A DNA stretch of 45,765 bases. It comes from an uncultured Armatimonadetes bacterium. Lineage in GTDB: Bacteria > Armatimonadota > Armatimonadia > Armatimonadales > Armatimonadaceae. The stretch's first letter is position 1. Each line of letters starts with the position of its first letter. The notes under the pieces are model-generated. The model worked only from the letters and a program-made list of their open reading frames with translations. It was not told the DNA's origin and searched no databases. The translations under genes were made by a program, and so were the position numbers. The stretch spans positions 1 through 45,765 of the forward strand of contig CAIYBQ010000128.1 of NCBI GenBank assembly GCA_903924445.1, read 5' to 3'. Shown here piece after piece: positions 15,415-38,212 of the stretch.

Positions 15415-16338
15415 ATGAACTCATCGCTGAGGTTTGGAAGTAGGAATCGAGCAGGCTTTACCCTGATCGAGCTTCTTGTTGTTATTGCAATCATTGCGAT
15501 TCTCGCAGCGATTTTGTTCCCAGCATTCGCTGGTGTACGGGAATCCGCGCGTCGCAGCTCGACGATGACCAATATGTCCAAGATTGCGCAGGCAGTAGCC
15601 GCGTATGAATTGGACAACCGTGAGTACCCTGAGTACTTGTTCGGACCTGCTGTTTCCCAGGCTGATGGAACACCGTTCGGAGACGCTCCTTACTACAGCA
15701 TGAAGGATGCAGCATCCATCGTAAACCGAGGAACGCCCATCGGACCGCTGCCGACTTCCACTGTAGCTGCACGCATCCGACGCATCTACTCTAAGGGGCT
15801 ATATCCCCAGTACATCCGGGATTTGGATACATACTCTTCACCTAACAATGCGGTTGCCACTCCAAGCGGCGCAGAGGATGTTGCAATCGTTGGTCGTTAT
15901 CCAACCTATGACCCGACCAATGGGGTTATGTCGCGTGTCGTTCCTGGCACGATGGTCGCGTTGCCTTTCTACACGTACGATGCCTTTGACATCAGTCCAA
16001 AGGTCACGAGTCTGATCGAAAACAAGATTTCGAAGACCGACTTCGTTGCCCGCTACAGCCGTGCCTGGTATCCAGTCACGACGACGGGTGCGCCCGGGGA
16101 TGGCGTTCCACCATCTGGGACATCGGATGGCGAGCGTGCTGCCAAGTATCGCAAGCAGCTCATTTGGCGCCAGCCACCGAATGACACGGTGCTTACCTAT
16201 ACGACCCACCACGTTCCATACGGCAAAGTTCTCGTCGTCTGGTTGAGTGGAACCGCCAAGGTGATTGATACCAAGCGCTTTAATGCACTGGTTGACAGCG
16301 CAGGCGACATCAAAGGGTATGAACTCGGACCTAACTAA
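15415..16338 (+). CDS. Prepilin-type N-terminal cleavage/methylation protein, GspG/major-pseudopilin-like (DUF1559-style N-terminus), 307 aa
   Basis: [14 protein letters not shown]|[35 protein letters not shown] carries a canonical class III signal (Gly-1, Phe+1, Glu+5). [16 protein letters not shown] resembles the GspG YxLDNGRYP motif. SD GAAGGAG is at 15397-15403. The protein has no Cys. Confidence 0.8.
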
Positions 16339-16348
16339 AGGACCAATC

Positions 16349-16363
16349 CTGTGGAACCCACAG
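16349..16363 (+). other. Small perfect hairpin CTGTGG-aac-CCACAG just after the first pilin-like gene
   Basis: Read directly. The stem is 6 bp and there is no U-tail, so at most it is a weak attenuator or processing site. Confidence 0.2.
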
Positions 16364-16406: not shown

Positions 16407-18299
16407 ATGCAATCTGGCAGGTACAGACCCATGATGAACACGAAGAAAGTACACAACGGCAAACGGGCGGCATCGCTCGTCGAAGTCATGGTTGTTCTCG
16501 TCGTCATCCTGATTGGCGTGTTTGCAATCATCCGTGTGTTTCCACTTGGACTTGGCTATCTGGGAACTGCATCCCGGCGTACGATTGCCGTTCGCTTGGG
16601 TCAGGGCATGATGGAGCAGGTAAAGTCGGATTCTGAAAACCTGCCCGATGCTGTCACATACACATACTGGGACAACGGGGCTCCTGTTACGGTCGTTTCC
16701 GAAGACCCTGATGATCTCACGAACCGTGCAGATGGCAATCCGTACTTCTCCGATGTCAACAAAACCCGATTTATTCAAGGTGAGGCGATTAAGATTGGTT
16801 TGCCGACGCCTGGCAACTACGCATCCGGCTACTTTCACAACGTCAAATTCGGGCCCATTTACATGGATCCACAGTTTGGTGACCCTGCTGTTGCTCCTGC
16901 CGGCGTAAACCCGTATCTGTCAGTCTATTCGGGAGCGCTTGATGCCCGAAATAGCCAGGCCGACTCGACGAACGGTCAACGGAGCCCGCTCGCGTATCGC
17001 GGTGCGCTCCGCAGCGCACGCTCTTATGTACTGGATCCCGGTACGGATGGCGGCGGCGCGTACATGCTGGTTCTGCCATCATCTCTTGACCGCTACTTCA
17101 AGGTTGAGTATCTCGTCCTTGTCGATGACGGCTCCGATGACAGTGGGCTGAATGTTCGCCTCGAAACAGAACAGCTGCTCGTACCAGCAAATGCGTTCGC
17201 TTGGGTCAAGCTGCAAAATGTTGCACCGAACGAGTCGATATCGCCAGGTTCTGACATCGTTACCCGAACGTTCCGTCGCCTGCCCGCCGGTACGACATGG
17301 TCAGCCGATGACCCATACGAGTACAAGTTGGCAAGTGCGAACATTTCTGGTGCGCCAGGATCGACGTCCTATGCGAATCTTGGACAGCTAGCCTTCAATC
17401 CGGCTGGAGCAAACTTCACCGAAGATGTAGCCGTTGGTCCCCGTGCCTTCGTTGCCTATGTCGATTACGCGGTGCTTGACTGGCATATCATTCGGGATGA
17501 CCGAGATGTGCCTAGCTCACTGCCAGATGTTGCAGGAGCAGTGCCGGTACGCCTAAGCCTTGCAAAGCTGAAGCGTATTGGGGACACCAATCCTGACAAC
17601 ACGTTCTATGATGGACTCTTCCCACCTGCGGACACTGACCCGACAGCAAACTTTGACATTCGTGTCATCCGCTTGGATACAGGTGTCGTCCTGACGCAGG
17701 GTGAGCATGATCTTCGATCCACAACCGATGCCAATGCGGACTATTGGGTGCGTGATGGCAAGGGTGGAACATGGGATGCAGGCCTTGTCTATCTGAACGT
17801 CAATCGTGTGCAGCCTGGTACGCCGATTCGTATTCTTTACAAAGCCGATGGCGAGTGGGCAGTTGCGTTGCAGAAGGCAGTCGCGACCTACCGAGCCTGG
17901 AATCAATCCCAGCTGGGACGTCCTCCGCTATCCGGCACTGATGGCAATGTTCAGTTCGGTGATCCAACGCGGTTTGGAATTGAAGGGACGCGTCTCTACT
18001 TTGCACGTAGTGAAGTAAACAAGGCTGTCACGGCTCGCTTGGAGCTGGTGGATGCCGCCGGGCAACACACGCGTACAGCGCCGCTTCAGGTTCCGATTTC
18101 CAGCACGGATGGCGATTATGCCACCGCAGACCTTTCACGGTTTATTCCGGCAGGCGTAAGCGACTGGCGAATTGTGGATGGTGCTGTCAAGGGTGTCAGT
18201 GTCAAGGTTAGGGTGATCTGGAAGGATCGAACCATTGATTCTGCGCCATGGCAGATTCAAGATATGGATTCTTACGTCACACAAGGAGTAGTGCAATGA
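16407..18299 (+). CDS. Giant minor-pilin/pseudopilin-like protein with a GspI/PilV-like N-terminus (630 aa)
   Basis: The N-terminus MQSGRYRPMMNTKKVHNGKRAASLVEVMVVLVVILIGVFAIIRVFPLG resembles GspI/PilV (xFSLIEVLVALxVLxIGLLG). SD AGGTAGGAA lies 5-8 nt before ATG 16407. The rest has no domain I recognise. No Cys. Confidence 0.6.
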   Translation: MQSGRYRPMMNTKKVHNGKRAASLVEVMVVLVVILIGVFAIIRVFPLGLGYLGTASRRTIAVRLGQGMMEQVKSDSENLPDAVTYTYWDNGAPVTVVSEDPDDLTNRADGNPYFSDVNKTRFIQGEAIKIGLPTPGNYASGYFHNVKFGPIYMDPQFGDPAVAPAGVNPYLSVYSGALDARNSQADSTNGQRSPLAYRGALRSARSYVLDPGTDGGGAYMLVLPSSLDRYFKVEYLVLVDDGSDDSGLNVRLETEQLLVPANAFAWVKLQNVAPNESISPGSDIVTRTFRRLPAGTTWSADDPYEYKLASANISGAPGSTSYANLGQLAFNPAGANFTEDVAVGPRAFVAYVDYAVLDWHIIRDDRDVPSSLPDVAGAVPVRLSLAKLKRIGDTNPDNTFYDGLFPPADTDPTANFDIRVIRLDTGVVLTQGEHDLRSTTDANADYWVRDGKGGTWDAGLVYLNVNRVQPGTPIRILYKADGEWAVALQKAVATYRAWNQSQLGRPPLSGTDGNVQFGDPTRFGIEGTRLYFARSEVNKAVTARLELVDAAGQHTRTAPLQVPISSTDGDYATADLSRFIPAGVSDWRIVDGAVKGVSVKVRVIWKDRTIDSAPWQIQDMDSYVTQGVVQ

Positions 18300-20503
18300 T
18301 CAATCGCAGTGCATTGATGCCGGTTGAGCTGCAATCTGTACAAGTCCTTGGTAAACGCCAAGCATCTGTTGCAATGCGCTACGCGCGGTTGTCCCGTGCC
18401 TTTACGCTCACTGAGCTCCTTGTGGTTATCGCAATCACAACAATTCTCCTCGGATTGTTGTTTGTGCCAATCATCCAAGGCTTCAACATCACACGCCGGG
18501 CTGCTGCTGAGACCGCAGCGCAGGCTGCTGTCCGGACTGGTCTCGAACGGATTTCCCGTGACTTGTCACAGGCTGTCTATGTCTTTGACAACAGCGCAAC
18601 GCCGATTTTGATGCCACTTTCACGCACATTTCCTATCGGTCCGGGCGGGGCTAACACCAACCAACCCCATATTCTGTTCGCGAAGATTGACTTTGTACCT
18701 CGCGGTGGAAAAGCACCTTCGGCGAGCGTCATAGACCCGACGACGGGTGAGCCAATGTCTGGGAAGACGCTGACATTGCCGCTGGCAAACGGAACACGGG
18801 TCATTCGGTACTTTCTTGGACTCCGACGTAACCTCGATGCAGCCGGTGCTGTCAAGCCGTATCTGAACCAATATGAGTTCAGCTCACGAGCGGATGGTGG
18901 CAACCCTGACAATGAGCATAATCCGCTCATCGTCTACCGGGCTGAGTTTGATCCTAAGGATCCTAATCTCTTTGACCTTGCCAATTACGGTAGTGTCGTC
19001 GATGGAGATGGCGGCTTTAACGACCCGGCATTTTTCTACAACACAAATCCTGCGCCAAATGGCCGCTCCTACGCACAGAACTGGAGAGACATCGCGAGTC
19101 CTCTGGTTGACTCTGATAAGGCAGATATGCTCGCGTGGCGCCGTGATGGCTCCGGTGCGCTCGTCACAGAAGCTCCATTCCGAACGCTTGTGACATTCAC
19201 ACCAGGAACGATTGTCGGCGATACCGCGACGCCTGGATTCATGAATAATGCAGCGGCGGAAGCGCCTGGTGCTGTGCCAACACGCTACAGAACCAAAAAT
19301 GGACAGTGGGCGCTTCCATATAGCGTAACGTTCTACCGCGCAGCGGGTGGGGCAGGACAGTCGCGTCCATCGTTTGGTGAGCTTCGTATCAGGTTTGAGA
19401 ATGAGCCTCAAGTCGATGGATCTACACGCCTCCGTGTCGTACCGACGGCAGCATCCGGAAGCCTTTCAGTAACACCTGAGCAGTTCTACACTGCGATTTC
19501 GCCAACGAGCGGAAAGTTGTTCGTCAAGACTCCGAACCTGTCGTTCCAGGTAGATGCGCGTACTGGCGCCATTGAAACTGGTTTCCAGCCGGTGGCTGGT
19601 ACAGGCGGCGGTGTTCCAATGCTGAACGCTGGCGGTGTGATTGGACCGATGACCGCTAGTGTTTATCCGCTGCGTGGTGATTTGATTCCATTGATTATGC
19701 GGATGGTCTCTCGGGATCCAAATGCTGGGACAAATGGAGTTCCCACGAATCAGGGTCTAACTGCGATTGCACCGTTCGGTCTTGGTGATGTAGCACCGTA
19801 TTACCCGCTCTCTGGCGCGACGTTACCTGTGGCGACTGCATCCCCAATGCAAGTCTTTGGCAATGTAGTAGGAGGCGCGATTGCATCGGGCGGCGGTTTG
19901 ATGATCACCCCAGGCAGCGAGCGTGTGCAGGCTCCGGATCTCCAACAGGGAAGTTCGTCAATCGCAAATCTCGTCACTTGGTACCGTGCTGCTGGTGCTA
20001 CTACATCAATCGCGAAGAAGGCTACACAGCTGGATGATGTTCTTGACGCATCCGGTGGTATCCGTAAGCGATGGACAGTAACGGGTGGACAACGCAATTA
20101 CATCTTGGACCAAGATACGCAAGTCAATCAGAGCGCGATGTTGCTATTCGATGAACCGAATGGTCCAGGATTGCCAGCCAAATCAATCACTGATGGGAAC
20201 ACAATCGCTGAAAGAGAAGTCAGACTTACCTATCTCTGGCAGAACAACTATGCACGACGCATTGGTGGTGATCAGAATGGATGGCCTGTAGATGCATCCG
20301 ATCATACACTCATCGATCTCGCTGGTGGTGCTACGAATGGCAAACAGACGTTAGTTGTCGAACCGGATGTTGTCAAAGTCGATTACAGCACTCGTTCACA
20401 GCTGGTGATTCAGTACGGTGTGAATGTCTATGATGGTGCGAGTAAGCGTGCAACAACAATGCAGCTTTCTGACCGCGTTAAAGTCGGCAATTTAGGACGG
20501 TAG
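18296..20503 (+). CDS. Giant minor-pilin/pseudopilin-like protein with a GspJ/PilW-like N-terminus (735 aa)
   Basis: ...MRYARLSRA|[28 protein letters not shown] has Phe+1 and Glu+5. A perfect SD, AAGGAG (18283-18288), sits 7 nt before ATG 18296. That ATG overlaps the upstream stop (ATGA). ATG 18374 is an alternative start. No Cys. Confidence 0.68.
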   Translation: MINRSALMPVELQSVQVLGKRQASVAMRYARLSRAFTLTELLVVIAITTILLGLLFVPIIQGFNITRRAAAETAAQAAVRTGLERISRDLSQAVYVFDNSATPILMPLSRTFPIGPGGANTNQPHILFAKIDFVPRGGKAPSASVIDPTTGEPMSGKTLTLPLANGTRVIRYFLGLRRNLDAAGAVKPYLNQYEFSSRADGGNPDNEHNPLIVYRAEFDPKDPNLFDLANYGSVVDGDGGFNDPAFFYNTNPAPNGRSYAQNWRDIASPLVDSDKADMLAWRRDGSGALVTEAPFRTLVTFTPGTIVGDTATPGFMNNAAAEAPGAVPTRYRTKNGQWALPYSVTFYRAAGGAGQSRPSFGELRIRFENEPQVDGSTRLRVVPTAASGSLSVTPEQFYTAISPTSGKLFVKTPNLSFQVDARTGAIETGFQPVAGTGGGVPMLNAGGVIGPMTASVYPLRGDLIPLIMRMVSRDPNAGTNGVPTNQGLTAIAPFGLGDVAPYYPLSGATLPVATASPMQVFGNVVGGAIASGGGLMITPGSERVQAPDLQQGSSSIANLVTWYRAAGATTSIAKKATQLDDVLDASGGIRKRWTVTGGQRNYILDQDTQVNQSAMLLFDEPNGPGLPAKSITDGNTIAEREVRLTYLWQNNYARRIGGDQNGWPVDASDHTLIDLAGGATNGKQTLVVEPDVVKVDYSTRSQLVIQYGVNVYDGASKRATTMQLSDRVKVGNLGR

Positions 20504-20508
20504 TCAAG

Positions 20509-23549: not shown

Positions 23550-26500
23550 ATGCAATGGCTTGATCGGAAAATCACACAGGTAAAGGCTGGCTGGATTGCA
23601 ACGTGCAGCAAAGGGCTAATCGCGCTTGCTGCATTATCCTGTCTTGGCACAGCATCCAGCGCTGATATCACGACCTACTCCACCAACAAACGTGTCTTTA
23701 AAGTTGGTGTACTCCTTGTGGATTCAACGGGATTCAACTTCGCGACTAATCCACCTGCACCACTGCCGGGTGGACCTGAAAATCCAGATCCTCACGTATT
23801 CTATGTTGCTGATTCACGACAGGACCTCAAGCCCGCTAACTGGGAGCTGATCAACCCATTGGCACCGAAGACTGTCACATCGGATATCTATGCTCGCTGG
23901 AGCCAGCCCGGTACAGGACGTGATCAAGCACATCCTTATAAGGTAGGCCAGCAAGTCACCAAGGATATGGCTTGCTACTGGGAAGTGAAGCTTTCGTCTG
24001 CATCAGTAGCTGATCTAGCACAATTTGACTTGCTGTTCGTAACAAACCATCGCACTGTTTTCCTAACACCGGAAGACCGCGAAAAGCTCCGCAAAGTCGT
24101 GGATGCAGGTGCTGTTTTGTGGATGGAAGACTGCTCCCGGATGCGCCTTCATCCGCGGGCACCATTTTTCCTTGAAGATGTTCAGTTTACGAGTGGTGGT
24201 GGTCAGGGCAAGCCTGTCGTTTATATGCCGGGCCATCCCCTGCTGAATCAGCCGTATGCACTCAGCGCACGTGACATCAATCGACTTGGTGATGCTAACT
24301 ATGGTGGGGGACGCGCAATTGCCTCGCATCGCCCTGGTGCTCTGCTTGCAACCGATGCTCCTCTCCTAGCACGTCCAAACCCGCAGGTCTTGCACAACGT
24401 GGTTGGAAACTCGGCAGTCGTTTCATCGACTGGTGAGTATCTCCCGTACATCGCTGCCGGCTCCTATGGAAGTGGTGGAGTCCTGATCACTGCAGGTGAC
24501 AGTGGCTGCGACATAAATGACTATGTCGGTGGTGTCAATATCGGAGCTGGTGGAAACTCCGGCGCATATTCAGGGAAGAATCTCTGGGCTGCACAAAGCG
24601 AAGATCTGCGCTTCGTTTACAACGCGATTGCTTGGGGGTCATCAAGCACCTCCTATCGTAAGAACAACCGTCGCGTTGGAGCCAGCCTCGAAATGGTTGG
24701 TGCTCCACTAATCGATGGCTTTGCTGTTGTTCCGACTTCCGTTGATCCTGCGTTCTCATCGGTTACCTCTCCGCTTGTAACACAAGGTCTTACGATCGCA
24801 TCTGGCGTAAGCGGCGGAGTCGGATTTGTGCGTGCCTACATTTCGCAGCCGTCCTTGGCTGCTGGTGACCGTGGACTTCCCGACCTCATCTTTGGCACGG
24901 CTTGGGATGAAGTATGGCGAGCGCCTATCGGAAGCGCAGGTGTCCCATCTACACCTGTATCCGCTCAGATCTACGTTGGGCTTCCTGCTCCAGTAGAAGT
25001 TGTCTTTGTGACGCTCGGGGATGGAACTCTCGCACGTGTTCCGATGCAATCCAAAGATGACGCGGGTAATCTGCTTGCGCTTCCTGTCGTTGAGACGAAT
25101 GCTCCAGTAGCAATCGGATCGCCATCTACGTACGAGAAGACAGCCTACAACGCTGCTCCAGCACCCGTCGTTTTCGAAAATCGTGTCTATGTAGTTGAGC
25201 CATCGGGATTAGTCCGCTGTGTGGATGCCCGAACGCTGACGACACTCTGGTGGAGCCATACCGAAGCGCTGAACCCAAGCGTAACGCCAAAGGGAACTCC
25301 AACACTGGGCGTCTCGCGACAGGATGTTGGGCAAGTTGGGTTTGGCCGCCGGGATGCATCGATTGCAAGCCGGTCAAATGGCAATACAAACGACGTGATG
25401 CTTTACACACCAGTTGTTGATGCAGACGGCAATGCGCATATCTATGCTTACTGGCTTGGAACGCGCCATGAAGTGGTTCGCACCGATGAGGGCGCGAGTG
25501 GAAACTACCGTACCCGTGTTGCACTGGACAACTCAGCGCCGGTAAACAATCGCCACTACGTAGCGCTCGGTAGGCCTGAGTTCATTACGCCAAGAGTTCG
25601 GGTTTATGACAGCGCTGATGCGATGAATCTCGGCGTATTGTCGACATCCTATTTCGGGACGTTCCGAGCGGATGGCTCAGGATTTGTTGAGGTACGTGGT
25701 ACGAACGGTGATGTTCCAGTCGGTCCTCGTCCTGTGATTTCCGTTGACTACGATGTTATGTATGTCACTGAGGATGCGACGCCTCCAGGCCTCGAAGAGG
25801 GAATCGGTGCACGCCTCGGACAACCATTGGTCATTCCTCAGCTGGATGTGACGCCGGTATCGAGTGGTCTTGACACGGTCGCAATGACAAACGAAGACCT
25901 CCTCGTCTTTGCTGTCCGTCAAACCAATGACCGCAACGGCTCTGGGCTCACAAGCATCATAGGAGTCAATGAGCAGTTCTCTGTTGGTGCGACAAAGTTC
26001 CGTCAGAATGTTGCTATTCTCGAGGACGTAGCTCCTATTAGTGCGCCTGTTGACCGACGAGTGGTCACCGAACTGCCGACATTGCGTAACCGTTTGATCT
26101 TTACTGGCGGAATCAGTACCAGCATGGGGGCAATCCTGGCTCCTGCCTGGGAAGGCCTTACCAATGTTCGTATTATGGGAAGCCCTGCAGTTTCTGCCGA
26201 TGGCATCTCATATGTCGTTGCACAGGCAACATCCGTTGCTAACAACGGTACGGTCTCTGTCATGATTGCGCTTCAGATGGACAAGGATGTCACACTCAAC
26301 CTCCCTGAAGCATACAACCCTGCCTACCCAGTGTCCGTTCGTCAATACAATGCGTTGACGTATCCGGCAACAGGTTCAGATCCTGTCCAAACGACGACAG
26401 CCATTCTTCCTGCGAACGCGGTGGACAATGTTGTTTCGTCTGTTCAGCTGACTGGCGATGCAAAGCGGGGCAAGATAACCGTCACCGATATGCGTCATCC

Positions 26501-28514: not shown

Positions 28515-31500
28515 GCCGTACAAATCGTATGAAAATCGAAACCCTTAATGCCCTCGTACGCACAGGATTCGCTGTAACCCTTTTTGGGACAGTGATAATC
28601 CCGGGTATGGCCCAGGAATTTACCCGGCCAAAACCGACAGCTACGAATCGGCCATCGATGCAGAATCCTGGCGGTAAAGCCCATGGTGGTAACAACAACC
28701 GTGGACGCCTTACAGGAGATTATCTCTGGGGTGTAACCAATGGAAACCGCACCTTTGATAAGCCTGTCTACAGTAGGGTTCCGCAGGAAACGATTGATTC
28801 TCCATTGTTTCTGGATGGCTGGACGTATCCGATAGCCCGTGCAGCTACCGGTGCCCGTGTTGGTCAAAACGCAACGGGCAGTATTCGTGACTTGTTGTTT
28901 CCGAGCGTCTTACTCGATAACGAAGCAACGGTCGGTATCGCGCCGATTAATGGCGCTACGGTTATCGCTCCGACCGGCAGAGTCGTCATTGGAGCCTCAT
29001 GGCTGACACCTGTTTCCGGTCCATCGACCCTGTTCACCGGGACGGTGTACCATCGCAAACAGGCAATCCAAAGGGCAAATGGTAACCCTGGAAATAACCC
29101 CACGGATGCCGGTAAGTTCAGCTGGTATCCATCGGTTGCGGGTGCTGCAGGATCGGTATCGCGGTATGCCATTCGGATCAAGATCCCACAATCTGCAAGT
29201 GACACCAGTGTTGAAGCCCGTGTCGCGGATGCCCGTTACGTTGTTTACTACCAAGTTCCAAACGGCAGCGGTGGCTTTACGCGTGCATCCAAGGTCTGTT
29301 ACGTCAGTCAACGAACGGCAGGCAGTTTTTATCTGAGTGGAACAGATGGCCAACCAGCCTACTTCCCGATGTTCTCTGATGCGACATACGGAGCTGGCGG
29401 AACCTATGCAAATGGGGGAGCGTTCGCGGATGGAACATTCCGTGCACGTGTTGAGCTCGATGCGACCACCGAATCACCGGCCGCTAATACATTCGTAATC
29501 GCCGATCAGGTCGAGTTTGTACAACGCCCACAAGCTGTCAAGGCAACTCCTACATTGGTTCCACCGCATGGTGGACGTAAGGTTGATACCGAACAGACTG
29601 GGTTTACGCCGAATAACTATTTTCAGCCGTTGGCATCAGCAACCTATACGATCGCAGACTTTATCAACAACCCGCTTGATCCCAGTTTTACAACGGGTAC
29701 GGCTACGATTGACGCAACAAACATCTCGACCATATTCTGGGGACCAGAATCAACAGTTCAACCTCTGAATGGGACGTCTGCGGTTGCTCCTGTAGATGCA
29801 ATCAATCACCGGGCATACCAGGATGGTTCTGGTAACCTGCTTCCATTCTTCTCGCACATGCAGGTCTTGGTTCCACGGACAGACTACATCGTTGATCCGG
29901 AAACAGGGGTTCCTACGGCGAGCAGCGATGGTACAAAGTCCATCGAACTTGGATCTATTCACTCCGTTGACTGGCTTACGGGGACACCAATCTGGCGATT
30001 TCCAGACCGCTCCTACATGCCTGGCGGTTTTCGAAACCCACAGGTTGGTACCGATATCGCGAACAAACCTGTCTATCAGATTCCAGGGATTGTCTCCTAC
30101 GATGTCAACAACGATGGAACCATCGTGGATGAGGAAGTCTTTATCGGCTCCCACGGTGACAACAACAATGGTGGCATCGCTGCGAGTGTGACGATCGTTC
30201 CGGGTATCGCAGTGCGAGGTCAGGTTCAGGTCCCGGTTCGAAATGCAAGTGGCGTAATCACTGGAACAACGGCAGCTCCACGCGGGCGCTACTTTGTTGA
30301 GCAAACGGTTCCAACACCGGGCTTTGCACCAGTTCTCAATACGGTTGCTTTTGTTACGGCCAACAATGGTGTGGTCTATGCGATTGACCCGTATGGCAAC
30401 AACGACTCCCGTTATCTTCCAAATGCGGACACAGCCATTCTTGGTACGTATCGCTACGGCTCCACAAACGTTCTCTGGACATTCTCACCTGAGAGTGCAG
30501 ACAGAGGAACAACGGGAACGCGTGCAGAGACATTAGAGCTTTACAACCGTCGCCTAAAGACGGAAGTTCCTGTCCCTGGGCCGTTTGGTAGTGCTGCACC
30601 TGTTGTCGCTTGGGCAAAGGCTGATACTGACCCGACATTGAACCTTCTTACAGACGAACCGCGTTTGTTTGTAGGAAACCAAAATGGAAATGTCTATGCA
30701 TTGGATGCCCGTGCTGATGCAGGCGTCAATGCTGTTTCGAATACGCTGAATGCGTTGCCATACCGCAAGGGACAACAAACCTACAATCCGAAACATCTCG
30801 CGAATAGCTTGGTCGTGCAGACTGATCCGCACCGCGCTGAACTCAAGTGGTGGTTTGAAACACTCGGTGCCATCAATGCATCTGTTGCAGTTTCCGAAGT
30901 ACCTGCGGCGAGAACGGCTCCAGCAACGGTTACTGCATCGAAGGGTGTTTATGTAACGACTGGAGAAGGTCGCGTTTACGCATTGGACTTTGATGGTCCT
31001 GTGACCAAGGCCGATCATGATGCAAACATGGTTTGGGATGGAACTGCTGGTGACTCACTGACAGCGGGAACTGCGCCGTCATTACCACCTACTGCAGGAT
31101 CCGCTGCCGCACTTAATGACAACATCAGGTTTAGGAATGCTGTGGCCGCACTTTCCGGTGCACGTCCAGACTTTACCGAGGGAACGATTCGACCGCGCTG
31201 GACATATCCAAACCGTTACCGTGATATCTCCGGCACCGACAACAAACTGACGGATCCGATTGATGCATCGACGGTTTACCCTGGAGCGAAGCTTGCTGAG
31301 CCAAGTACGGTTGCCGGACCTATCTACTCGGCACCAGTCCTCCTTGACTTCCCGTTCCTGGATCCAGACACGGCGACACTTTCCGGGGTACGACGTTACG
31401 TTGTTGTTTCGACAAACGACTTGAATGCCGACTCTCCTGATAGCCCACGTCAAGGTCGGTTGCTGTTGCTTGATCAGGAAGGTGACCGCAAGGATTTCCT

Positions 31501-34500
31501 TACTAACCCGATGCCTACCAAGGCATCAGCGGCAGTCGTTCCGCCCGCGAAGCCCGTGGCTGCAGCTGGTGCAACGATTTATTCTCAGCCCATCGATCAA
31601 TACGTCTCAAAGTTAGGTGCTTTTGGTCGGGCGACACCTGCCTGGACCTATCGGCATCAGTTTGACACTTACACGGCAGGTGTCCCGAGTATTGCAAAGC
31701 GGAATGCTCCTGTAGCCACCGGAGTTACGGGTAGCCCTGCTTATCGAACATTACCGACGATCTTTGTTGGTGGCATCGGGCGTGTCTATGCAATCGATCT
31801 CGATCCAGCGACTGGTCTTTTCCTACGCTGGCGTGGAACAGCTGCTGATCAGCTGACAACATTGCCTACCGGCGCAGTGATTCCATCGGAAGAGGGTGCA
31901 ACGGATCGTCTAAACCCCAATGATCCACTCAACCCGTCAAACCCATTGTTTAACGTTGGTGATCGCCTGACGAAGCGGCTCGGATTCAAACGTATCCTTG
32001 CAAGGACGGTTCCTCTCCTTGGGGATCGATCGGCCATCGATGGTGACTTGGTTGTTACGGGTGGACCACTAATCAATCGCAGCAATGCGGAAGCACGTAC
32101 TGCGGCTGCGACATTGACTGGACGCGGAGCTGGAACGACAACCCCTGTGGATGTCTCCCTCACAACATCACCTCTACGCCCAAGCGTTCCATTGATTCCA
32201 ACGGATGATGCGCCATCGAGTGTTTACGTGATGCGTTCGACTGCGACTGGTGCATACGCACCATTCGGTTACGACATTACATCGGTGTTGTTTGCAGACA
32301 GTGTGTTCCCGGTCTTTGACTTCACTGGAATGTATGCCAATCAGGATGTCGATGATCCGCTGAGCACAACACGCGGAACGTTGCCATCGACGACGGCGGC
32401 TCCAGCGCTGGCATCGGGTACTCCGGAGAACACTGCCTATCAGTATCCAAGTTTGTTTGTAACCAGTCGTGATGGCTACCTCCACGAGCTGAGCACAAAC
32501 CTTGAAGGCGAAGATCTATCGCTGCCATCGGTTGTAACCAATCCTGGTGAAACAACAGCGGCACTGGGATGGGCGACGACGGAAGACCCGGAACGCTTCA
32601 ATGATCTCCATGTCTACCTTGTAACTAGGATGGGGCCGGGCGGTCAGGGTTCCGGCATAACAGCCGTTACGAATGCGTATTTCCCTGGTCGAGATTCGGA
32701 CTATGCGAAGTCCCGTGGTATTCAGCAAAAGCTGCGTACGGACGGAACAGCCTACTTCCGTTTTTATCCGCCACAGGAACCAGTTGTGGTTGGGCAAACG
32801 CCAGACTACGGAGATAATGCACGACCAAACCTCAAGCCACGCGGTCTCTATCGCCAGCTGGTTTCGGCGGTGTTTTTCCCGAAGGATACCAATACGGGAG
32901 CCACCGGCTTCCCATTGGATCAACGTGGACTCTTCTACGACAAGCGTTTCCGGACAGCGGCTGGAACGAATGCGAATGAAGGTGGATTGGTAAAGCTTCC
33001 CGGCTACTCGGCCATGGGTGAAGTCACGGGCGCAACCGCCTTCAATCCGCAAGGACCAGAATCCGATAGTGAGCGCGCGGCTGCAAACACATCGCTTGCT
33101 CCGGGAATCCTTGCAGCGCCAAGTGCAAATGTAAACCCAAGTGGTCAAAACGCAACGTGGGTCTATGTTGCTGGTGATGACGGTCTGCTGTACGCATATA
33201 CCCCTGTGTATGCGAAGCGCCTCGGTGGTATTGCATCCGGGTTTGTCGGCGGGACAATTGTTCGTCGCGTCGATCCTGGTGAAGGTCAAGTTAAGGTCGA
33301 CATCTTCGATGCCGCTGACTTCCAGACCTTGTTTGCCGCGGCCCAAAGCGGGTCGCCACTACGTCCACGCCGTGACGGTGAAGCAGCGACTGCGCCAAGT
33401 ACGAGCAATATTGTGTCCCGTACAGCAAAGGGTAAGCGGCCATTCTTTGAGTGGGGTGAGTCTATTCCGATTGTTATCTGGGATGTAACGGTACGTAAGT
33501 CGTTTGACTCATCGACACCAGCACCCTCGATTCCAAACATTCCAGCAAGCTTCCAGGTCACTGTGCGGTTGACGCCACGCGGTGGAAATTCGATTACGCG
33601 AACGCTGAATCTCGCGATGTCAGGACCTACCGTCTCGGTTTATCCTTACGATCGTGAGTACACGGTTCCTCCGATTGACACACCTGCTGGGCATGTGCCA
33701 GCGGCACTTGGGATAGCGTTTGCTGACTTCCGAATCGATGGAACAAGCGGACTTCCTATCGGACCAGGAACACCTATCGATGTCCAAGTAACGGTTGGTC
33801 CTCCACTGACCGTTCCAGGTTCAGATCCTCGTACTGGTCCTCAAGTTATTGTTCAGGTTGTGGGTGGAGCGTTTGAGGCACAGATTCTCAATCGCACCAA
33901 TCCACTTTTCTGGGCGGCTAACCCTCTCGGTGTACAGGGCTTCCTGATGGACACCGTGAGCACCGCGAATGGAGTTGCTCCAGTCTTGGTAGGTAAGCCA
34001 TCAGGTGATCCTCTCGCTGGTGGTATCGGACCATTCCGTACGGGTGACAACGCCAAGGCCTTGTATCCATCCGCTGGCGCGACACTGGTCGACCCGGATA
34101 GAGCTGGTTCCGAATATAGCCAAGCACTTGGAAATGGAAATGTGATTGAGCGTATCGATGCCGATCAGTTCCTCTCCGATGGTGTTGGTGGGCGACGACG
34201 TAACACTCGGTTTGGTTTACGCTTGCGGGATGCAGCCGGGGCAGATGACCTTTCCTACTACGTGCCGGTCGCAGCGAGCGCAGGCTACATCAACCATGGC
34301 CGTACAGGCTCATCGGATGTGTCTGCAAATCAACGTAACCTTCGCATCGTCAACCGTTCACTAATGGGCTCCCTGAGCAATGTTCGTGCAGAAGTTCTCG
34401 ATGACCTTATCTGGCGATGGTGGCCGGCAAACTTGCCGAATGCTGATTCTGGAACGGACAATGTCCGCCGGACGCCAATCGGAATGGGCGTGGATGGACG

Positions 34501-37500
34501 TATCAATCCATTGCCTTGGGAAACAGTCGTGACTGAGGCCCAGCCATGGAAGCGCAAGGCGCTGACTGCGGCAACGGGTTCCATCATGGCACTCGGAAAC
34601 CTTAGCCCTGACTACACAGACATCAGTGCAGCATCCGCATCGAATCAAGGCCGACAGGCTGTGTCGATTGTTATCAACGGTACCGATGCGGTCACCGGTG
34701 GAGCATCCGTGTTTGCTGGTGGTCAAGACCTTCAGACAAACACAAATCCTGGCTACGTGACAAACCCATTGGGAGCTGCTGCTAGTGCATCGGCTGCTAT
34801 CAATGTCAAGGTGCCGCGGTACCAGCCAGCCAACTTGGTCGCGATGCATTCGTTGACATCCACGTATGAGTTGCCAAGTAGCATTGACGGAGCAACGATT
34901 ACGACGGCAGATGGTCGTGTCCAGCTTCCACGTGGACTTGCCAACCGTGAACTACGTAAGTGGACCGGTGGTAGCTTCAATGGTGAGAAGGCAATCACGC
35001 CGTTCGGTTACACAAGTCGTGTCCGAATGTATGTGGATGCGAACGGTAATGGAATCTGGGATGCTCAGAGTGGCGAAGAGCCATACCGCATCGTCGAAGT
35101 CTGGATGGGCGTTCCTGTCGACATGGGGCTGCGTGCAGCTGAAACACCTGTTGATCTTGGTGGGCTGCCTGGCGGCTTCGGTATCCAAAATGGTGTTCTT
35201 GGCTACGGTGGAACGATTCTAAGCGGTGAGCAAGCAGGCTTTGCGCCTCCGCCACTTCGTGCACCATATGCACCATTCTTCCGTCCGGTAACGATTCAGA
35301 ACACGGGAAATGTCAACCTTTGGAACCTCCGCGCATCACAGCGCATCGAGACACCAGGGTCGGCGACGGCAGGTGCGGGTACAAACTACTATCTCTTCGG
35401 AATGCGAAGCGAGCTCGTTGACCCACGCTTTGGTATTCTCGCCTTCGGTGCGGATCCTAATGGGAACTTGCCACTGGCTAACTTGATGCCGCAGGTGGTG
35501 ACATCGCTGGATAAGACATTCGACAACGCATGGCTTCAGTGGATGCAAACCAATCCTGATCCGGTCTTCCGTGCAACGATGGACTACGACCTCGGTGGCC
35601 AAACCGTCTTCCAACGGTATTACCAACCGCTTGCGGGACGTCATACGCTCCACAAGGCTCAGCCGAACGCAGCGAACCCATCGGTGCTTGGTATTCCTGA
35701 CCTTCCTGGTGCACAAAACCTGTTGCCATATGGTTACGTTGCTCCTGAAGCAGCAAAGCCGATGGTCGGAATCGCAGTTCCACACGGTACGCCGACCGGG
35801 GTTTACTCAAGCCGGTACGCAAACCGTAATGGTGCACCACCTCAGCTAGGCGTCTTCGAGGACCATGACACTGATCCGACGAGAAACTATGCAGCGGTTC
35901 CTGTTCTGCAACCAGATGGCACCATCTCGATTGCTGGACCGACATACCGTGGCATCAATGGCGTCGACAGTAACCTCAACTTCGTCTACCCAGGCGCTCA
36001 GCCTATCTTCCCGGTAGCTGGCGAAACCGTCCTTCGCGGACGGACTGGCATCACGAATGCAGCAGGTGCTGTTGTCGGTGTTGAATATCAGCCACACACT
36101 AACCCGTCGATGGAGTTGAAGGTAACCGTTTCAGAGAGCTCGATCACTGGTCAGGTTCCTGACTTTGATCTCAGCGCTCAGGTTGCGAACGGCCAGCTGC
36201 CCGGTATTGATGTGTTCCCGATTCTGGATGCCGCCCGGCGACCAGCATCGGCCATCAGCCCTGCGACGTACCGCTCGGCCAATGGACGGATTAACGTCTA
36301 CTTCTCGCGCAATGCAGATGCAAACGGAGTTGCTTTGACCGGTGTCGGTGACCCAGTAAAGCTGTTCCATTCGCATATGAACTGGAATCCAACACTGGGA
36401 ACGTTCGTGGCTGCCGACTTTGGAACGCCTGTTGCTGATCCATCGCTGAACACGGGACGCTGGTTTACAGCACCTACGATTATCAATGGAACTGCTGACT
36501 TGCGGGAAAGCAATACGGCTCCGTATGTGCTCCAAACGTCACCAACGCAGACCAATGCGCTCCTCGTCTGGGCGAACAGCCGTCAAGCGTCCGGAGGGGA
36601 CATCCTCGACACGATCATGTATTCTCGCCTCGATGCCAATGGCGTTCCGTCATCGGTGAACCCATGGTTTGTCAATGGTGATCCTGAAGTACGTCGGTTT
36701 AGTCCAAAGGTCGCCTTTGATTCTGGTACGAATACATCGATGCTTGTCTTCCACGGAGGAGTTCCTGGGAAGTGGCGGTTAATGTACTCTGGCCGGGGAT
36801 CCGATGGCGCTGGTGTTCCAACAGATACCGCTCCGGATGGCGCTGGTCGTCAGCTTGGTGAACAGGTTCTGTCGCTTCCAGATTCGATCGTGAGCGCTAG
36901 CGAGCCGTTTGCTACATTCCGCCGGATGGTTCGCCATAACAATGGTGCATCACCGGTCTTGGATGTTGTCTTTACAGGAACTGTCCGTACGGATGCAAAC
37001 CCTGATCTCTACATGGCCCGCTACCTAATGCTGGGTAATGGTCGACGGTCGCGACTTGCGCCGGCTGACCTTCCACAGATTACAAATGAGCTTCTTGTTC
37101 AGGAAGGTCGTGAGCTTCTCTGGAAGGCACGTCACATTGCATGGACGAGCAACCTGGACGATCAAGCATCCCTTCCTGTGGTGCGTTTGGCTAAGTCCGA
37201 TGGAACATCCATCACGACAAACGCCACACGGTGGCAATACGATGCAGCAACCAAGGTTCTGTATCAGGCCATCGCGCAGCCAACCGGTGTGATGTACATC
37301 TATGCGGATGCAACCGCTGGTGTGATTCGCTTCCGCGGCGTGGGGACACCAACAAGTCGTGATCAGGTGTTTGCATCCTATCAACCGAGGCTCTATCGCC
37401 TCACGGCAGATGATGCAGCAGACACAGGCGTAACGGTCGTCAACGACAACCGGACGCTGGCTGCAGGAACTGGTTCCTACAGTGGCATCGTTCGTCGGCC

Positions 37501-38212
37501 AAATACGACCAGCATGGGAGCAGGACGGTCGTGGTTGGTATGGCAAAAGGGCGCTGAGCCTGGTCGCCCTGCCACCTTGTACATGAGCACACGGCGTGTA
37601 GGCATCGATCTTCGCAGTCTGTCATTGCCAGTCGCACAACGGCTTGCACTTGAAGAGACTGTCGGACTCGAAGCACCGACTGCACCTGGTGCATCACAGT
37701 TCCCATCCGTAGCATCCGTTGCGGTAGCCGGCGTTGGTGCTGTGCCGTTTGACATCGATGTCCTTCGAGGACGTATCTTTGTGGATGCAGTGTTTGAAGG
37801 TCAGTTGATAACGGTCACGTACACAGCGGCGAACGGCAATGCACTCAACAATCGGGTTGCGGTTGCGGTGCTGTCGCAAATCGAAGAGCTTGGTGGGACT
37901 GAGAGCTCAACCGGCACGGTGCCTAGCGGCCCGCAGTCGATTGGCCAGATGGTGCCGATGCAGCGTGCAGTGAATGAGGGCCAAGTGTCCGCATTCCTCG
38001 ATCTCTTCAATGCAACAGCGGGTGTGAACCGTGTGAACGGACCAGCCCCTGGTGGAGATCCAACGCTTGAATCGGGTCGTCTCTGGATGTTCTGGACGAG
38101 CTCACGTGGACGGTTTGCAAAGCCTGGTGCCGATGGACTAGTCCTTCCAAGCGGCTTTGACATCCTCTACCAGACGCTTGCACCAAACTTTGAGTTTCCA
38201 AGCTACCGCTAA
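28511..38212 (+). CDS. Secreted giant protein (3233 aa) with dispersed PQQ-like beta-propeller blades and EF-hand-like Ca loops; proposed PilY1-analogous tip protein
   Basis: GTG 28511 sits 6 nt after GGAGA and overlaps the upstream stop (GTGA). Signal-like N-terminus: MKIETLNALVRTGFAVTLFGTVIIPGMAQE. Blade motifs: VAFVTANNGVVYAIDPYG, LFVGNQNGNVYALDARA, VYVTTGEGRVYALDFDG, IFVGGIGRVYAIDLDPATG, LFVTSRDGYLHELS, VYVAGDDGLLYAYTPV. Ca-loop-like sequences: DVNNDGTIVDEE and DANGNGIWD. One uninterrupted ORF, with a single Cys. Confidence 0.6.
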   Translation: MSRTNRMKIETLNALVRTGFAVTLFGTVIIPGMAQEFTRPKPTATNRPSMQNPGGKAHGGNNNRGRLTGDYLWGVTNGNRTFDKPVYSRVPQETIDSPLFLDGWTYPIARAATGARVGQNATGSIRDLLFPSVLLDNEATVGIAPINGATVIAPTGRVVIGASWLTPVSGPSTLFTGTVYHRKQAIQRANGNPGNNPTDAGKFSWYPSVAGAAGSVSRYAIRIKIPQSASDTSVEARVADARYVVYYQVPNGSGGFTRASKVCYVSQRTAGSFYLSGTDGQPAYFPMFSDATYGAGGTYANGGAFADGTFRARVELDATTESPAANTFVIADQVEFVQRPQAVKATPTLVPPHGGRKVDTEQTGFTPNNYFQPLASATYTIADFINNPLDPSFTTGTATIDATNISTIFWGPESTVQPLNGTSAVAPVDAINHRAYQDGSGNLLPFFSHMQVLVPRTDYIVDPETGVPTASSDGTKSIELGSIHSVDWLTGTPIWRFPDRSYMPGGFRNPQVGTDIANKPVYQIPGIVSYDVNNDGTIVDEEVFIGSHGDNNNGGIAASVTIVPGIAVRGQVQVPVRNASGVITGTTAAPRGRYFVEQTVPTPGFAPVLNTVAFVTANNGVVYAIDPYGNNDSRYLPNADTAILGTYRYGSTNVLWTFSPESADRGTTGTRAETLELYNRRLKTEVPVPGPFGSAAPVVAWAKADTDPTLNLLTDEPRLFVGNQNGNVYALDARADAGVNAVSNTLNALPYRKGQQTYNPKHLANSLVVQTDPHRAELKWWFETLGAINASVAVSEVPAARTAPATVTASKGVYVTTGEGRVYALDFDGPVTKADHDANMVWDGTAGDSLTAGTAPSLPPTAGSAAALNDNIRFRNAVAALSGARPDFTEGTIRPRWTYPNRYRDISGTDNKLTDPIDASTVYPGAKLAEPSTVAGPIYSAPVLLDFPFLDPDTATLSGVRRYVVVSTNDLNADSPDSPRQGRLLLLDQEGDRKDFLTNPMPTKASAAVVPPAKPVAAAGATIYSQPIDQYVSKLGAFGRATPAWTYRHQFDTYTAGVPSIAKRNAPVATGVTGSPAYRTLPTIFVGGIGRVYAIDLDPATGLFLRWRGTAADQLTTLPTGAVIPSEEGATDRLNPNDPLNPSNPLFNVGDRLTKRLGFKRILARTVPLLGDRSAIDGDLVVTGGPLINRSNAEARTAAATLTGRGAGTTTPVDVSLTTSPLRPSVPLIPTDDAPSSVYVMRSTATGAYAPFGYDITSVLFADSVFPVFDFTGMYANQDVDDPLSTTRGTLPSTTAAPALASGTPENTAYQYPSLFVTSRDGYLHELSTNLEGEDLSLPSVVTNPGETTAALGWATTEDPERFNDLHVYLVTRMGPGGQGSGITAVTNAYFPGRDSDYAKSRGIQQKLRTDGTAYFRFYPPQEPVVVGQTPDYGDNARPNLKPRGLYRQLVSAVFFPKDTNTGATGFPLDQRGLFYDKRFRTAAGTNANEGGLVKLPGYSAMGEVTGATAFNPQGPESDSERAAANTSLAPGILAAPSANVNPSGQNATWVYVAGDDGLLYAYTPVYAKRLGGIASGFVGGTIVRRVDPGEGQVKVDIFDAADFQTLFAAAQSGSPLRPRRDGEAATAPSTSNIVSRTAKGKRPFFEWGESIPIVIWDVTVRKSFDSSTPAPSIPNIPASFQVTVRLTPRGGNSITRTLNLAMSGPTVSVYPYDREYTVPPIDTPAGHVPAALGIAFADFRIDGTSGLPIGPGTPIDVQVTVGPPLTVPGSDPRTGPQVIVQVVGGAFEAQILNRTNPLFWAANPLGVQGFLMDTVSTANGVAPVLVGKPSGDPLAGGIGPFRTGDNAKALYPSAGATLVDPDRAGSEYSQALGNGNVIERIDADQFLSDGVGGRRRNTRFGLRLRDAAGADDLSYYVPVAASAGYINHGRTGSSDVSANQRNLRIVNRSLMGSLSNVRAEVLDDLIWRWWPANLPNADSGTDNVRRTPIGMGVDGRINPLPWETVVTEAQPWKRKALTAATGSIMALGNLSPDYTDISAASASNQGRQAVSIVINGTDAVTGGASVFAGGQDLQTNTNPGYVTNPLGAAASASAAINVKVPRYQPANLVAMHSLTSTYELPSSIDGATITTADGRVQLPRGLANRELRKWTGGSFNGEKAITPFGYTSRVRMYVDANGNGIWDAQSGEEPYRIVEVWMGVPVDMGLRAAETPVDLGGLPGGFGIQNGVLGYGGTILSGEQAGFAPPPLRAPYAPFFRPVTIQNTGNVNLWNLRASQRIETPGSATAGAGTNYYLFGMRSELVDPRFGILAFGADPNGNLPLANLMPQVVTSLDKTFDNAWLQWMQTNPDPVFRATMDYDLGGQTVFQRYYQPLAGRHTLHKAQPNAANPSVLGIPDLPGAQNLLPYGYVAPEAAKPMVGIAVPHGTPTGVYSSRYANRNGAPPQLGVFEDHDTDPTRNYAAVPVLQPDGTISIAGPTYRGINGVDSNLNFVYPGAQPIFPVAGETVLRGRTGITNAAGAVVGVEYQPHTNPSMELKVTVSESSITGQVPDFDLSAQVANGQLPGIDVFPILDAARRPASAISPATYRSANGRINVYFSRNADANGVALTGVGDPVKLFHSHMNWNPTLGTFVAADFGTPVADPSLNTGRWFTAPTIINGTADLRESNTAPYVLQTSPTQTNALLVWANSRQASGGDILDTIMYSRLDANGVPSSVNPWFVNGDPEVRRFSPKVAFDSGTNTSMLVFHGGVPGKWRLMYSGRGSDGAGVPTDTAPDGAGRQLGEQVLSLPDSIVSASEPFATFRRMVRHNNGASPVLDVVFTGTVRTDANPDLYMARYLMLGNGRRSRLAPADLPQITNELLVQEGRELLWKARHIAWTSNLDDQASLPVVRLAKSDGTSITTNATRWQYDAATKVLYQAIAQPTGVMYIYADATAGVIRFRGVGTPTSRDQVFASYQPRLYRLTADDAADTGVTVVNDNRTLAAGTGSYSGIVRRPNTTSMGAGRSWLVWQKGAEPGRPATLYMSTRRVGIDLRSLSLPVAQRLALEETVGLEAPTAPGASQFPSVASVAVAGVGAVPFDIDVLRGRIFVDAVFEGQLITVTYTAANGNALNNRVAVAVLSQIEELGGTESSTGTVPSGPQSIGQMVPMQRAVNEGQVSAFLDLFNATAGVNRVNGPAPGGDPTLESGRLWMFWTSSRGRFAKPGADGLVLPSGFDILYQTLAPNFEFPSYR

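Follow-up and report, generated by a model that had tools for sequence, protein, structure and literature searches.

Minor pilins and PilY1 are thought to prime the assembly of type IV filaments, to set their function and to travel at the filament tip through the secretin, and to our knowledge all current tip models rest on subunits of 15-35 kDa and one adhesin of ~120 kDa. The corresponding genes stand in a recurring order, H/G-I-J-K-adhesin, as in fimU-pilVWX-pilY1, gspHIJK and mshDOPQ (bioRxiv 10.64898/2026.02.14.705861). Here, we describe a six-gene operon that keeps this order with far larger products. It lies at 15415-38212 of a 45,765-nt stretch of DNA from an uncultured Armatimonadetes bacterium (contig CAIYBQ010000128.1; the whole stretch is called the window below, and its positions are used throughout), where six tightly packed open reading frames (ORFs), named g1 to g6 in order, run on the plus strand. 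We consider it probable that the operon encodes the pilin and the priming or tip module of a type IVa-like pilus, as an enlarged variant of the minor-pilin/PilY1 set. Gene content, signal motifs, synteny with pilus machinery, fold classes and conservation across the phylum carry this view, and they largely support an earlier interpretation made from the letters of the window (hereafter the sequence-only reading), whose six plus-strand ORFs are all intact and of the sizes claimed:

15415-16338, plus strand: g1, 307 aa, counted from the ATG at 15415, which is preceded by a ribosome-binding site (AAGGAG, 11 nt 5' of the ATG)
16407-18299, plus strand: g2, 630 aa
18296-20503, plus strand: g3, 735 aa
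20509-23523, plus strand: g4, 1004 aa
23550-28514, plus strand: g5, 1654 aa; an alternative ATG at 23523 would overlap the g4 stop by 1 nt
28511-38212, plus strand: g6, 3233 aa, GTG start

Combined, g2 to g6 comprise 7256 aa (~772 kDa), and the g6 product has a mass of ~343 kDa.

Gene order and pilus machinery across Armatimonadota

Gene order and strand are identical in 71/71 Armatimonadota loci, including that of the Armatimonas rosea type strain, when the six window proteins are searched (tblastn) against all fetched loci and those holding at least three of the six genes are counted. The sequence-only reading had recognised a minor-pilin tip module in the H/G-I-J-K-adhesin order and had tied this to co-localisation in relatives; in all 71 loci the homologues are indeed co-localised and colinear. 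Median ortholog sizes are 300, 630, 666, 950 and 1609 aa for g1 to g5, and homologues of g6 span 3200-3832 aa; the six genes of the A. rosea type strain encode 303, 677, 724, 1018, 1636 and 3472 aa. The only break in the array was seen in one Armatimonadota metagenome-assembled genome (MAG), where a 390-aa gene without a Pfam match lies between g5 and g6 (L087, 14377-15549, minus strand).

Relatives of g4 occur in 265 genomes in a scan of one genome per species, and the best 80 of these 265 are Armatimonadota except for a few contigs that are probably mis-binned. An exhaustive profile search places 864 clusters (50% identity) in the g4 family, 507 of them at E <= 1e-30; among the best 150 clusters listed, most are 850-1150 aa long and some are shorter and apparently partial. 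Named homologues are almost all from Armatimonadota, include Armatimonadia, Capsulimonadales, Chthonomonadales and Fimbriimonadia, and are nearly all annotated as hypothetical. The entries L023, L033 and L069 and P0051, P0058 and P0069 bear the labels Tepidisphaeraceae, Sedimentisphaerales, Propionibacteriaceae, Cytophagales, Fibrella or Akkermansiaceae despite an operon or proteins of Armatimonadota type. Such off-phylum labels on operon contigs and proteins are most likely binning errors rather than signs of horizontal transfer.

Upstream of g1, pilus machinery genes are frequent. Among the 45 loci with at least 3 kb of sequence 5' of g1, pilC and pilD stand directly upstream of it in 32. 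In the annotated loci (L001 and L088) the series is pilB (MshEN and T2SSE)-pilT-pilC (T2SSF)-pilD (peptidase A24)-g1...g6, which in L088 follows aroE. The extension ATPase scores best against PilB (637 bits, just under the cut-off of 675.65 bits) and second against GspE (597 bits), the second ATPase belongs to PilT/PilU (514 bits vs a 319-bit NCBIfam cut-off), and the platform protein has the Thermus-type PilC as its best profile. These upstream pilB, pilT, pilC and pilD genes make the operon part of a type IVa-like gene cluster, in which it supplies the pilin and the minor pilins. The sequence-only reading had called for type IV filament machinery in the genome, and a PilB-like ATPase, PilT, PilC and the A24 prepilin peptidase are thus encoded directly 5' of the operon in annotated relatives, though not in the window. 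The conserved cluster holds no secretin, pilMNOP or gspC/L/M genes. PilQ, PilM and PulD genes have been reported in Fimbriimonas ginsengisoli (PMC4072686).

Pilin signals and folds of g1 to g4

Class III signals, with Gly or Ala at position -1 and Glu at position 5 (Glu5), are conserved phylum-wide in g1, g2 and g3. Across all six frames of the window, the motif [GA]-x-[ST]-[LMF]-x-E with hydrophobic residues after it is found only three times, at the N-termini of the same three proteins (an arrow separates positions -1 and 1):

g1, N-terminus of the window protein: prepilin signal, [14 protein letters not shown]↓FTLIE
16467-16475, plus strand: g2 class III signal, ...GKRA↓ASLVE
18398-18406, plus strand: g3 class III signal, ...LSRA↓FTLTE

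Orthologue alignments give the N-terminal consensus G↓FTL(I/V)ELL(T/V)VIAIIAIL for g1, G↓(A/T/I/F)SL(V/I)E(V/I)LV for g2 (Glu5 being invariant in 28 orthologues) and G↓FTL(V/I)ELLVV for g3. For g4, the window protein reads ...REGG↓QSLTV and the orthologues G↓Q(S/T)L(V/I/T)(V/I)A, so that position 5 is Val or Ile and there is no Glu5. The absence of Glu5 is a trait of GspK and PilX (PMC7541494). With a pilin-like N-terminus lacking Glu5 and a gene that comes directly after the J gene, g3, in 71/71 loci, g4 follows the PilX/GspK/ComZ-type pattern.

The canonical prepilin signal that had been read in g1 is confirmed by N_methyl (PF07963; E 6.3e-10, 38.7 bits vs a gathering score of 21.2 bits). 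The g1 N-terminus is GspG-like over 60 aa (profile TIGR01710, E 4.7e-13, residues 14-73, under the family cut-off), and there is a weak DUF1559 signal (SBP_bac_10, 1.2e-3). Judged from these matches, g1 may be either the pilin of the system or a subunit at the FimU/GspH position. An all-against-all BLASTP of the six proteins found the N-terminal helices of g1 and g3 as the sole similarity, with no internal repeats and no paralogy of g5 and g6. Cysteine counts are 0 in each of g1 to g4, 6 in g5 and 1 in g6; since g1 to g4 have no Cys, they are without the disulfide-bonded D-region of type IVa pilins, like T2SS pseudopilins.

The GspG match, which is the best one for the g1 N-terminus, and the lack of Cys would also suit an endopilus like that of type II secretion systems (T2SS), with g1 as the GspG-like major subunit and g2 to g4 as the GspI/J/K-like tip of a short periplasmic pseudopilus, and with g5 and g6 as dedicated Sec-exported cargo that is expelled or left on the cell surface and does not stay on a filament tip. 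Propeller platforms can occur in T2SS cargo, which is itself exported by Sec, PilY1 has been described as analogous to T2SS substrates, and the size of g5 and g6 is awkward for stable carriage through a secretin. Furthermore, systems in Armatimonadetes have been reassigned to the T2SS by Denise et al. 2019 (PMC6668835). However, T2SS lack PilT, whereas the annotated loci have a gene for a PilT/PilU-family retraction ATPase between pilB and pilC. PilB is a better match than GspE for the extension ATPase, PilC matches the type found in type IV pili best, neither gspC/L/M nor a secretin gene is in the cluster, and the conserved C-terminal peptide of g5, together with its PilY1-type Ca loop, fits a tip protein that is retained. 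We regard the endopilus as unlikely and keep to the type IVa-like tip module.

The structural evidence comes mainly from g4. Its AlphaFold2 model, built on a 63-sequence alignment (predicted local distance difference test, pLDDT, 87.5; predicted template-modelling score 0.89), contains a helix of 63 residues (14-76), four beta strands and beta-rich domains. The top PDB match in Foldseek is Thermus ComZ (6qvi_B, E 1.6e-5, probability 0.91), which we take as a likeness of architecture and not as proof of homology; next in rank are CBM36/6/4/22 jelly rolls and tailspike beta-helices. In ComZ, which is a GspK-like pilin, the pilin sheet carries an inserted beta-solenoid, and this insert forces a position at the tip (PMC6561018). 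In the g3 model (pLDDT 86.3), an alpha1 helix of 54 residues (38-91) is followed by four beta strands and a beta-rich remainder. In both models, the four strands lead into large beta-rich inserts, and the C-terminal strands are conserved. The C-termini of g2, g3 and g4 all carry conserved motifs, that of g4 (PRLPxAPGLLYxGE) strongly so. These motifs might mean that the inserts of g2 to g4 split the pilin fold, as is the case in ComZ and CpaL.

ComZ is also the DNA-binding tip pilin of the Thermus competence pilus (PMC6561018), and the best PilC profile is likewise the Thermus type; both would agree with a DNA-uptake pilus in which g4 is a ComZ-like tip DNA receptor for natural transformation. 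Such a competence pilus is nevertheless very unlikely, because the similarity between g4 and ComZ is weak and concerns the fold rather than DNA-binding residues, comEA, comEC and dprA are absent from both the window and the conserved cluster, and Thermus has no counterpart of g5 or g6. In addition, the extra domains of the operon proteins (CBM-like jelly rolls, Golvesin_C, propellers) point to glycans or surfaces rather than to DNA.

For g2, PilV (TIGR02523) is matched in 28/28 orthologues, always below the cut-off (best 1.9e-9, residues 23-82); at 29.2 bits vs a cut-off of 52.2, and over profile positions 5-64 only, g2 falls outside PilV/GspI (TIGR02523, TIGR01707) as these are curated. Its N_methyl score of 15.9 bits is under the 21.2-bit gathering score, which g3 passes with 22.1 bits. 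The g3 orthologues match HpsC in 60/61 cases (best 1.8e-9; 37.6 bits vs a 200-bit cut-off) and Verru_Chthon C in 51/61, over the N-terminal part only, and match GspJ (TIGR01711) in 2/61 (2e-3), which leaves g3 outside PilW/GspJ, although in NCBI annotation the A. rosea orthologue goes under the name of a PulJ/GspJ family protein. From these N-termini and the gene order, g2 as a putative enlarged minor pilin at the PilV/GspI (PilI) position and g3 as one at the PilW/GspJ (PilJ) position are both largely supported.

HpsC, a pseudopilin of cyanobacterial hormogonium polysaccharide secretion, is thus the best profile of g3, and Verru_Chthon B, C and D weakly match g2, g3 and g1. In both the Hps and the Verru_Chthon cassettes, pilin-like genes stand together with one for a very large protein. 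All this would fit pseudopilins that drive polysaccharide or slime secretion, or motility, instead of displaying an adhesin. We consider it most unlikely: the scores lie far under the curated cut-offs (Verru_Chthon C for g3, 23.3 vs 256.5; B for g2, 15 vs 51.4; D for g1, 23.9 vs 70) and cover the N-terminal helix only, so the models (TIGR02596/8/9 for Verru_Chthon, NF038303/4 for the Hps pseudopilins) claim none of these proteins as members. The conserved cluster has no glycosyltransferase or polysaccharide export genes, and g4 to g6 have no match to Verru_Chthon A or HpsA at E <= 1.

Exported propeller proteins and the borders of the operon

The orthologues of both g5 and g6 start with ordinary Sec signal peptides, and their alignment agrees with the Sec-type signals noticed earlier in the window proteins. 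In all loci g5 follows g4, and its Sec signal and position match the PilY1/PilC pattern. A lipoprotein anchor for g5 was considered and ruled out, as its orthologues have no conserved lipobox Cys. Profile evidence assigns the following domains:

g5: DUF4159-like, residues ~150-200; PQQ/BamB-like propeller; NHL-like blades, residues ~1236-1320
g6: PQQ-like propeller, residues ~600-900; long remainder matching no family

Pfam does not detect the PQQ-like blades claimed for both proteins when given the window sequences only; they emerge with profiles built from orthologues. Searches of the six window proteins against Pfam and NCBIfam returned only the N-terminal pilin matches and sub-threshold DUF4159 (g5) and GEVED (g6), and phmmer of window g5 and g6 against PDB sequences returned nothing. 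Among the g5 orthologues, Pfam finds DUF4159 in 26/27, PQQ_2 in 9/27 and NHL in 7/27, and the g5 orthologue profile matches BamB (~4e-7), designer 'Cake' propellers (1.7e-13) and Pizza6/NHL (9e-6) in the PDB. The g6 orthologue profile matches Bagel8 (7.1e-14) and the PQQ propeller 3hxj. Pfam has no match in 13 g6 orthologues of the window's clade; g6 orthologues of other classes (L034, L042, L059, L080) start with two Golvesin_C domains (77-124 bits) and also carry a PQQ_2 propeller (38-82 bits), with every score exceeding its gathering score. In L042, a weak CBM_5_12 match precedes the propeller. Golvesin_C domains are carbohydrate-binding-like; together with the CBM-like domains and the propellers, they are a hint that the ligand is a glycan or a polysaccharide surface.

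Two features of g5 recall PilY1. The first is its extreme C-terminus, ...LIDQPLFGDRL in the window, which gives the phylum-wide motif (L/I)x(Q/K)Px(F/S)(A/G)(D/E)R within the last dozen residues; this peptide is at the 90.6th percentile of conservation in a family whose members are only 22-47% identical. According to a recent study (bioRxiv 10.64898/2026.02.14.705861), the K-position minor pilin has its beta-sheet completed by the final ~10 residues of PilC/PilY1, MshQ is predicted to act in this way too, and in GspK and CpaL the strand is provided in cis. By analogy, the g5 terminus is a candidate trans strand, and the g4 terminus a candidate cis strand, for sheet completion. The second is a single EF-hand-like loop, D-x-D-x-(D/N)-G-x-x-D (e.g., DLDGDGNPD), at one aligned position before the PQQ-like propeller, present in 26/32 g5 orthologues (L001, L012 and L019 among them); 22/32 have the strict PilY1-type Ca-site consensus Dx[DN]xDGxxD (PMC8833165).

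At its borders, the operon shows the following signals:

15268-15297, plus strand: promoter-like element 5' of g1, TTGCAC-18 nt-TATAAT, with a weak -35
38235-38263, plus strand: intrinsic terminator closing the operon, with an 11-bp stem (8 G-C pairs), a 3-nt loop and a T run (hairpin 38235-38259)

From g1/g2 to g5/g6, the junctions measure 68, -4, 5, 26 (or -1) and -4 nt. The sequence-only reading had described 68 nt after g1 and, from there on, junctions of 5 nt or overlaps. This is right for the 68-nt gap and for the junctions of -4, 5 and -4 nt, and is right for g4/g5 only if the alternative ATG at 23523 is used (1-nt overlap, otherwise 26 nt). Tight junctions and a single terminator were counted in favour of an operon structure. 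The downstream terminator is as strong as had been claimed, and the operon likewise ends after g6 in Armatimonas sp. The promoter claim holds in part: on direct reading the -10 is perfect, but the -35 has only 3/6 consensus positions, and a sigma-70 scanner did not recover the element, which fails its criteria. A consensus TTGACA at 15197-15202 is followed 14 nt downstream by an A/T-rich CATAAT (15197-15222) at the start of a divergent alpha/beta-hydrolase gene, a spacing too close for a canonical promoter.

The genes next after the terminator are unrelated (SRAP, NUDIX), and the housekeeping flanks comprise dnaE, leuB, uppS, a GH2 enzyme, a P-type ATPase, a TolC-like OEP, SRAP, NUDIX and an M16 peptidase. 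GC content is the same in the operon as in its flanks, and because of this uniformity the operon is not an island; an origin from a mobile island was ruled out by the uniform GC and the housekeeping flanks together. Divergent from the operon (12896-15203, minus strand), the TolC-like OEP gene (518 aa, OEP 1.7e-39) overlaps the alpha/beta-hydrolase gene (14400-15203, minus strand) by 53 nt, and the TolC-like gene indicates a diderm envelope. Downstream of the operon, and with no evident link to it, lie a 455-aa ORF without a Pfam match (39579-40946, minus strand) and a gene for a 359-aa protein with a C-terminal PKD domain (41032-42111, plus strand).

The proposed tip module and its comparison with known systems

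If the operon is a type IVa-like tip module, g1 to g3 would be cleaved by the prepilin peptidase and held in the inner membrane by their alpha1 helices. An apical trimer of g2 (I), g3 (J) and g4 (K) would then serve as the platform for filament polymerisation, with g4 presumably the top subunit because it lacks Glu5. Each of g2 to g4 would keep the pilin N-terminal helix and conserved C-terminal strands and would have gained a beta-rich insert of several hundred residues, which in g4 may include a ComZ-like solenoid and a CBM-like jelly roll. Once exported by Sec, g5 and probably g6 would dock on the trimer like PilY1, PilC or MshQ, most likely via the extreme C-terminal peptide of g5 by beta-strand complementation, and would move outward as a propeller-rich head of ~0.5 MDa that serves adhesion or ligand capture, while PilB extends the filament and PilT retracts it. 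We infer the formation of this complex, its location at the tip with g5 and g6 included, its outer-membrane passage and its ligand.

In its fullest form, this would be a retractile pilus with a five-protein tip of ~0.77 MDa, made of three giant minor pilins and two propeller giants and far wider than the filament, an idea that we offer tentatively and consider somewhat doubtful. A tip of ~770 kDa would imply threading through the secretin domain by domain, or another route. If true, 1) the tip would thread the secretin as a string of ~5-nm domains, assemble outside the cell or use a new outer-membrane route, 2) it might act like a harpoon, catching polysaccharide particles or else partner or prey cells, and not as a simple adhesin, and 3) the rules now accepted for the size and assembly of type IV filament tips would be extended.

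Several points weigh against a type IVa-like tip module. With respect to load, that all of the more than 7000 residues ride on the filament tip is something we infer, and bringing ~770 kDa of folded protein across a secretin is a physical obstacle for it. With respect to machinery, the window has no pilus machinery genes among its flanks, and in Armatimonadia, the clade of the window, as well as in Fimbriimonadia, the operon is separated from the machinery genes, none of which adjoin it. With respect to the signals, window g2 and g3 have Ala and not Gly at -1. Most orthologues have Gly there; Ala also occurs in several g1, g2 and g3 orthologues of other lineages, which, with the window proteins, suggests that the prepilin peptidase of Armatimonadota accepts either residue. 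The Ca motif is lost in window g5 (residues ~430-460, ~24830-24930) and in the Armatimonas clade (L003, L014, L086), where the loop is shortened.

The remaining points concern similarity. Curated family thresholds are reached by none of g2, g4, g5 and g6, and beyond the N-terminal helices by none of the six. The globular parts of g2 to g4 have no sequence-detectable homology to GspI/J/K or PilV/W/X, and the matches of g2 and g3 to PilV, GspI, GspJ and HpsC are confined to the N-terminal 25-80 residues. When aligned with the E. coli K-12 proteins (hhalign), the g2 profile matches GspI over 25 columns, in the N-terminal helix only, the g3 profile matches GspJ over 45 N-terminal columns, and the g4 profile matches GspK over 0 meaningful columns. 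Against PDB sequences, the g2 and g3 profiles match pilin alpha1 only and the g4 profile matches nothing. The window g4 and nine orthologues have no Pfam or NCBIfam match, PilX_N (PF14341) and T2SSK (PF03934) included, and PF05567 (PilY1/PilC) is matched neither by window g5 and g6 nor by 27 g5 or 13 g6 orthologues. Among the models, g3 has no Foldseek match in the PDB at E < 0.01, and the g4-ComZ match, with template-modelling scores of 0.10 and 0.17 and a root-mean-square deviation of 19.5, is a local 3Di similarity and not a rigid superposition.

What the sequence-only reading had said of the individual pilins is accordingly upheld in part. N-terminal profile matches and Glu5 bear out the GspI/PilV- and GspJ/PilW-like helices of g2 and g3, while all scores are under the PilV and GspJ cut-offs and no globular homology accompanies them. 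The GspK/PilX-like helix of g4 survives as a class III-like signal without Glu5, but not as sequence similarity to GspK or PilX_N. A pilin fold of g2 to g4 beyond a generic transmembrane helix is favoured by the Glu5 pattern, by the long alpha1 and subsequent beta strands of the g3 and g4 models and by ComZ as the top match of g4, and is at odds with the lack of a PDB fold match for g3. That the six genes encode unrelated giant surface proteins with N-terminal transmembrane anchors and no link to a type IV filament, as the unmatched bulk of their mass and the window's lack of machinery genes might suggest, is hardly credible and is contradicted by synteny with pilus machinery (in the annotated loci the operon directly adjoins the genes for the prepilin peptidase and PilB/T/C, and in most lineages it adjoins pilC/pilD), by the class III motif with its invariant Glu5 in three consecutive genes phylum-wide and by the fitting I-J-K pattern of Glu5 presence and absence.

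The tip module that we favour is of a known kind, the minor-pilin/PilY1 type, and is new in scale and composition, with three enlarged pilins, two giant propeller proteins, DUF4159 and Golvesin_C. The I-J-K-adhesin logic is kept, every part is enlarged 3-5 fold and a second protein of 343 kDa is added; a pilus tip built in this way would probably exceed all described ones by far in size. A full-text literature search found no description of the operon, nor of minor pilins or tip proteins of this size, consistent with the earlier statement that no system of such architecture was known; the nearest mention is the detection of T2SS-class systems in Armatimonadetes (Denise et al., PMC6668835). Its enlargement and phylum-wide conservation make the module a direct test of 1) the cargo limits of the pilin fold and the secretin, 2) whether beta-strand complementation is universal and 3) how the poorly known, carbohydrate-scavenging Armatimonadota use pili. 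Experiments are possible because cultured strains carry the operon (Armatimonas rosea) or likely do (Chthonomonas and Fimbriimonas, relatives of which have it in MAGs of those orders).

Among described systems, the FimU-PilV-PilW-PilX-PilY1 set of type IVa pili (P. aeruginosa and M. xanthus; PilH/I/J/K and PilC in Neisseria) shares with the operon the sequence of H/G, I, J and K followed by a Sec-exported propeller protein, Glu5 in I and J and not in K, and the PilB/PilT/PilC/PilD machinery. Also shared are the Dx[DN]xDGxxD loop beside the propeller, in most g5 orthologues, and a downstream protein whose extreme C-terminus is conserved, as beta-strand complementation requires. In contrast, the I, J and K proteins of the operon have 630, 735 and 1004 aa instead of roughly 130-330 aa, and two downstream proteins (1654 and 3233 aa) replace one of ~1000-1200 aa. 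There is no match to PF05567, PilX_N or globular PilV/PilW, the N-terminal domain of g5 is DUF4159-like and not vWA, and no PilE-like gene follows the adhesin genes.

The MshD-MshO-MshP-MshQ series of Vibrio MSHA resembles the operon in that a large protein (~1200 aa) outside the PilY1 family, with predicted C-terminal docking, is encoded directly after the I/J/K genes. MshQ thus shows that large proteins of unrelated kinds can take the adhesin position. However, MshQ is single and a quarter of the size of g5 plus g6, and the minor pilins of MSHA are not enlarged. The PilA1-PilA2-PilA3-ComZ series of Thermus thermophilus (6QVI) provides the best PDB match to g4 and a precedent for enlargement by an insert in the pilin fold. 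In Thermus only the K-position subunit is enlarged, the crystallised ComZ chain of 498 residues is about half of g4, counterparts of g5 and g6 are missing and sequence similarity is undetectable.

Cyanobacterial HpsB-D and verrucomicrobial Verru_Chthon A-D resemble the operon through HpsC as the best curated profile of g3 and through weak matches to g1 to g3; they differ in their accessory genes and in having an A-type or HpsA-type protein with no match among g4 to g6. Finally, the GspH-I-J-K tip of the T2SS (3CI0) and CpaL of Tad pili share the I-J-K logic with a K subunit lacking Glu5, whereas the T2SS has no PilT and releases its cargo. In GspK and CpaL, the terminal beta-strand acts in cis and the insert sits atop the tip; the PRLPxAPGLLYxGE terminus of g4 could act likewise.

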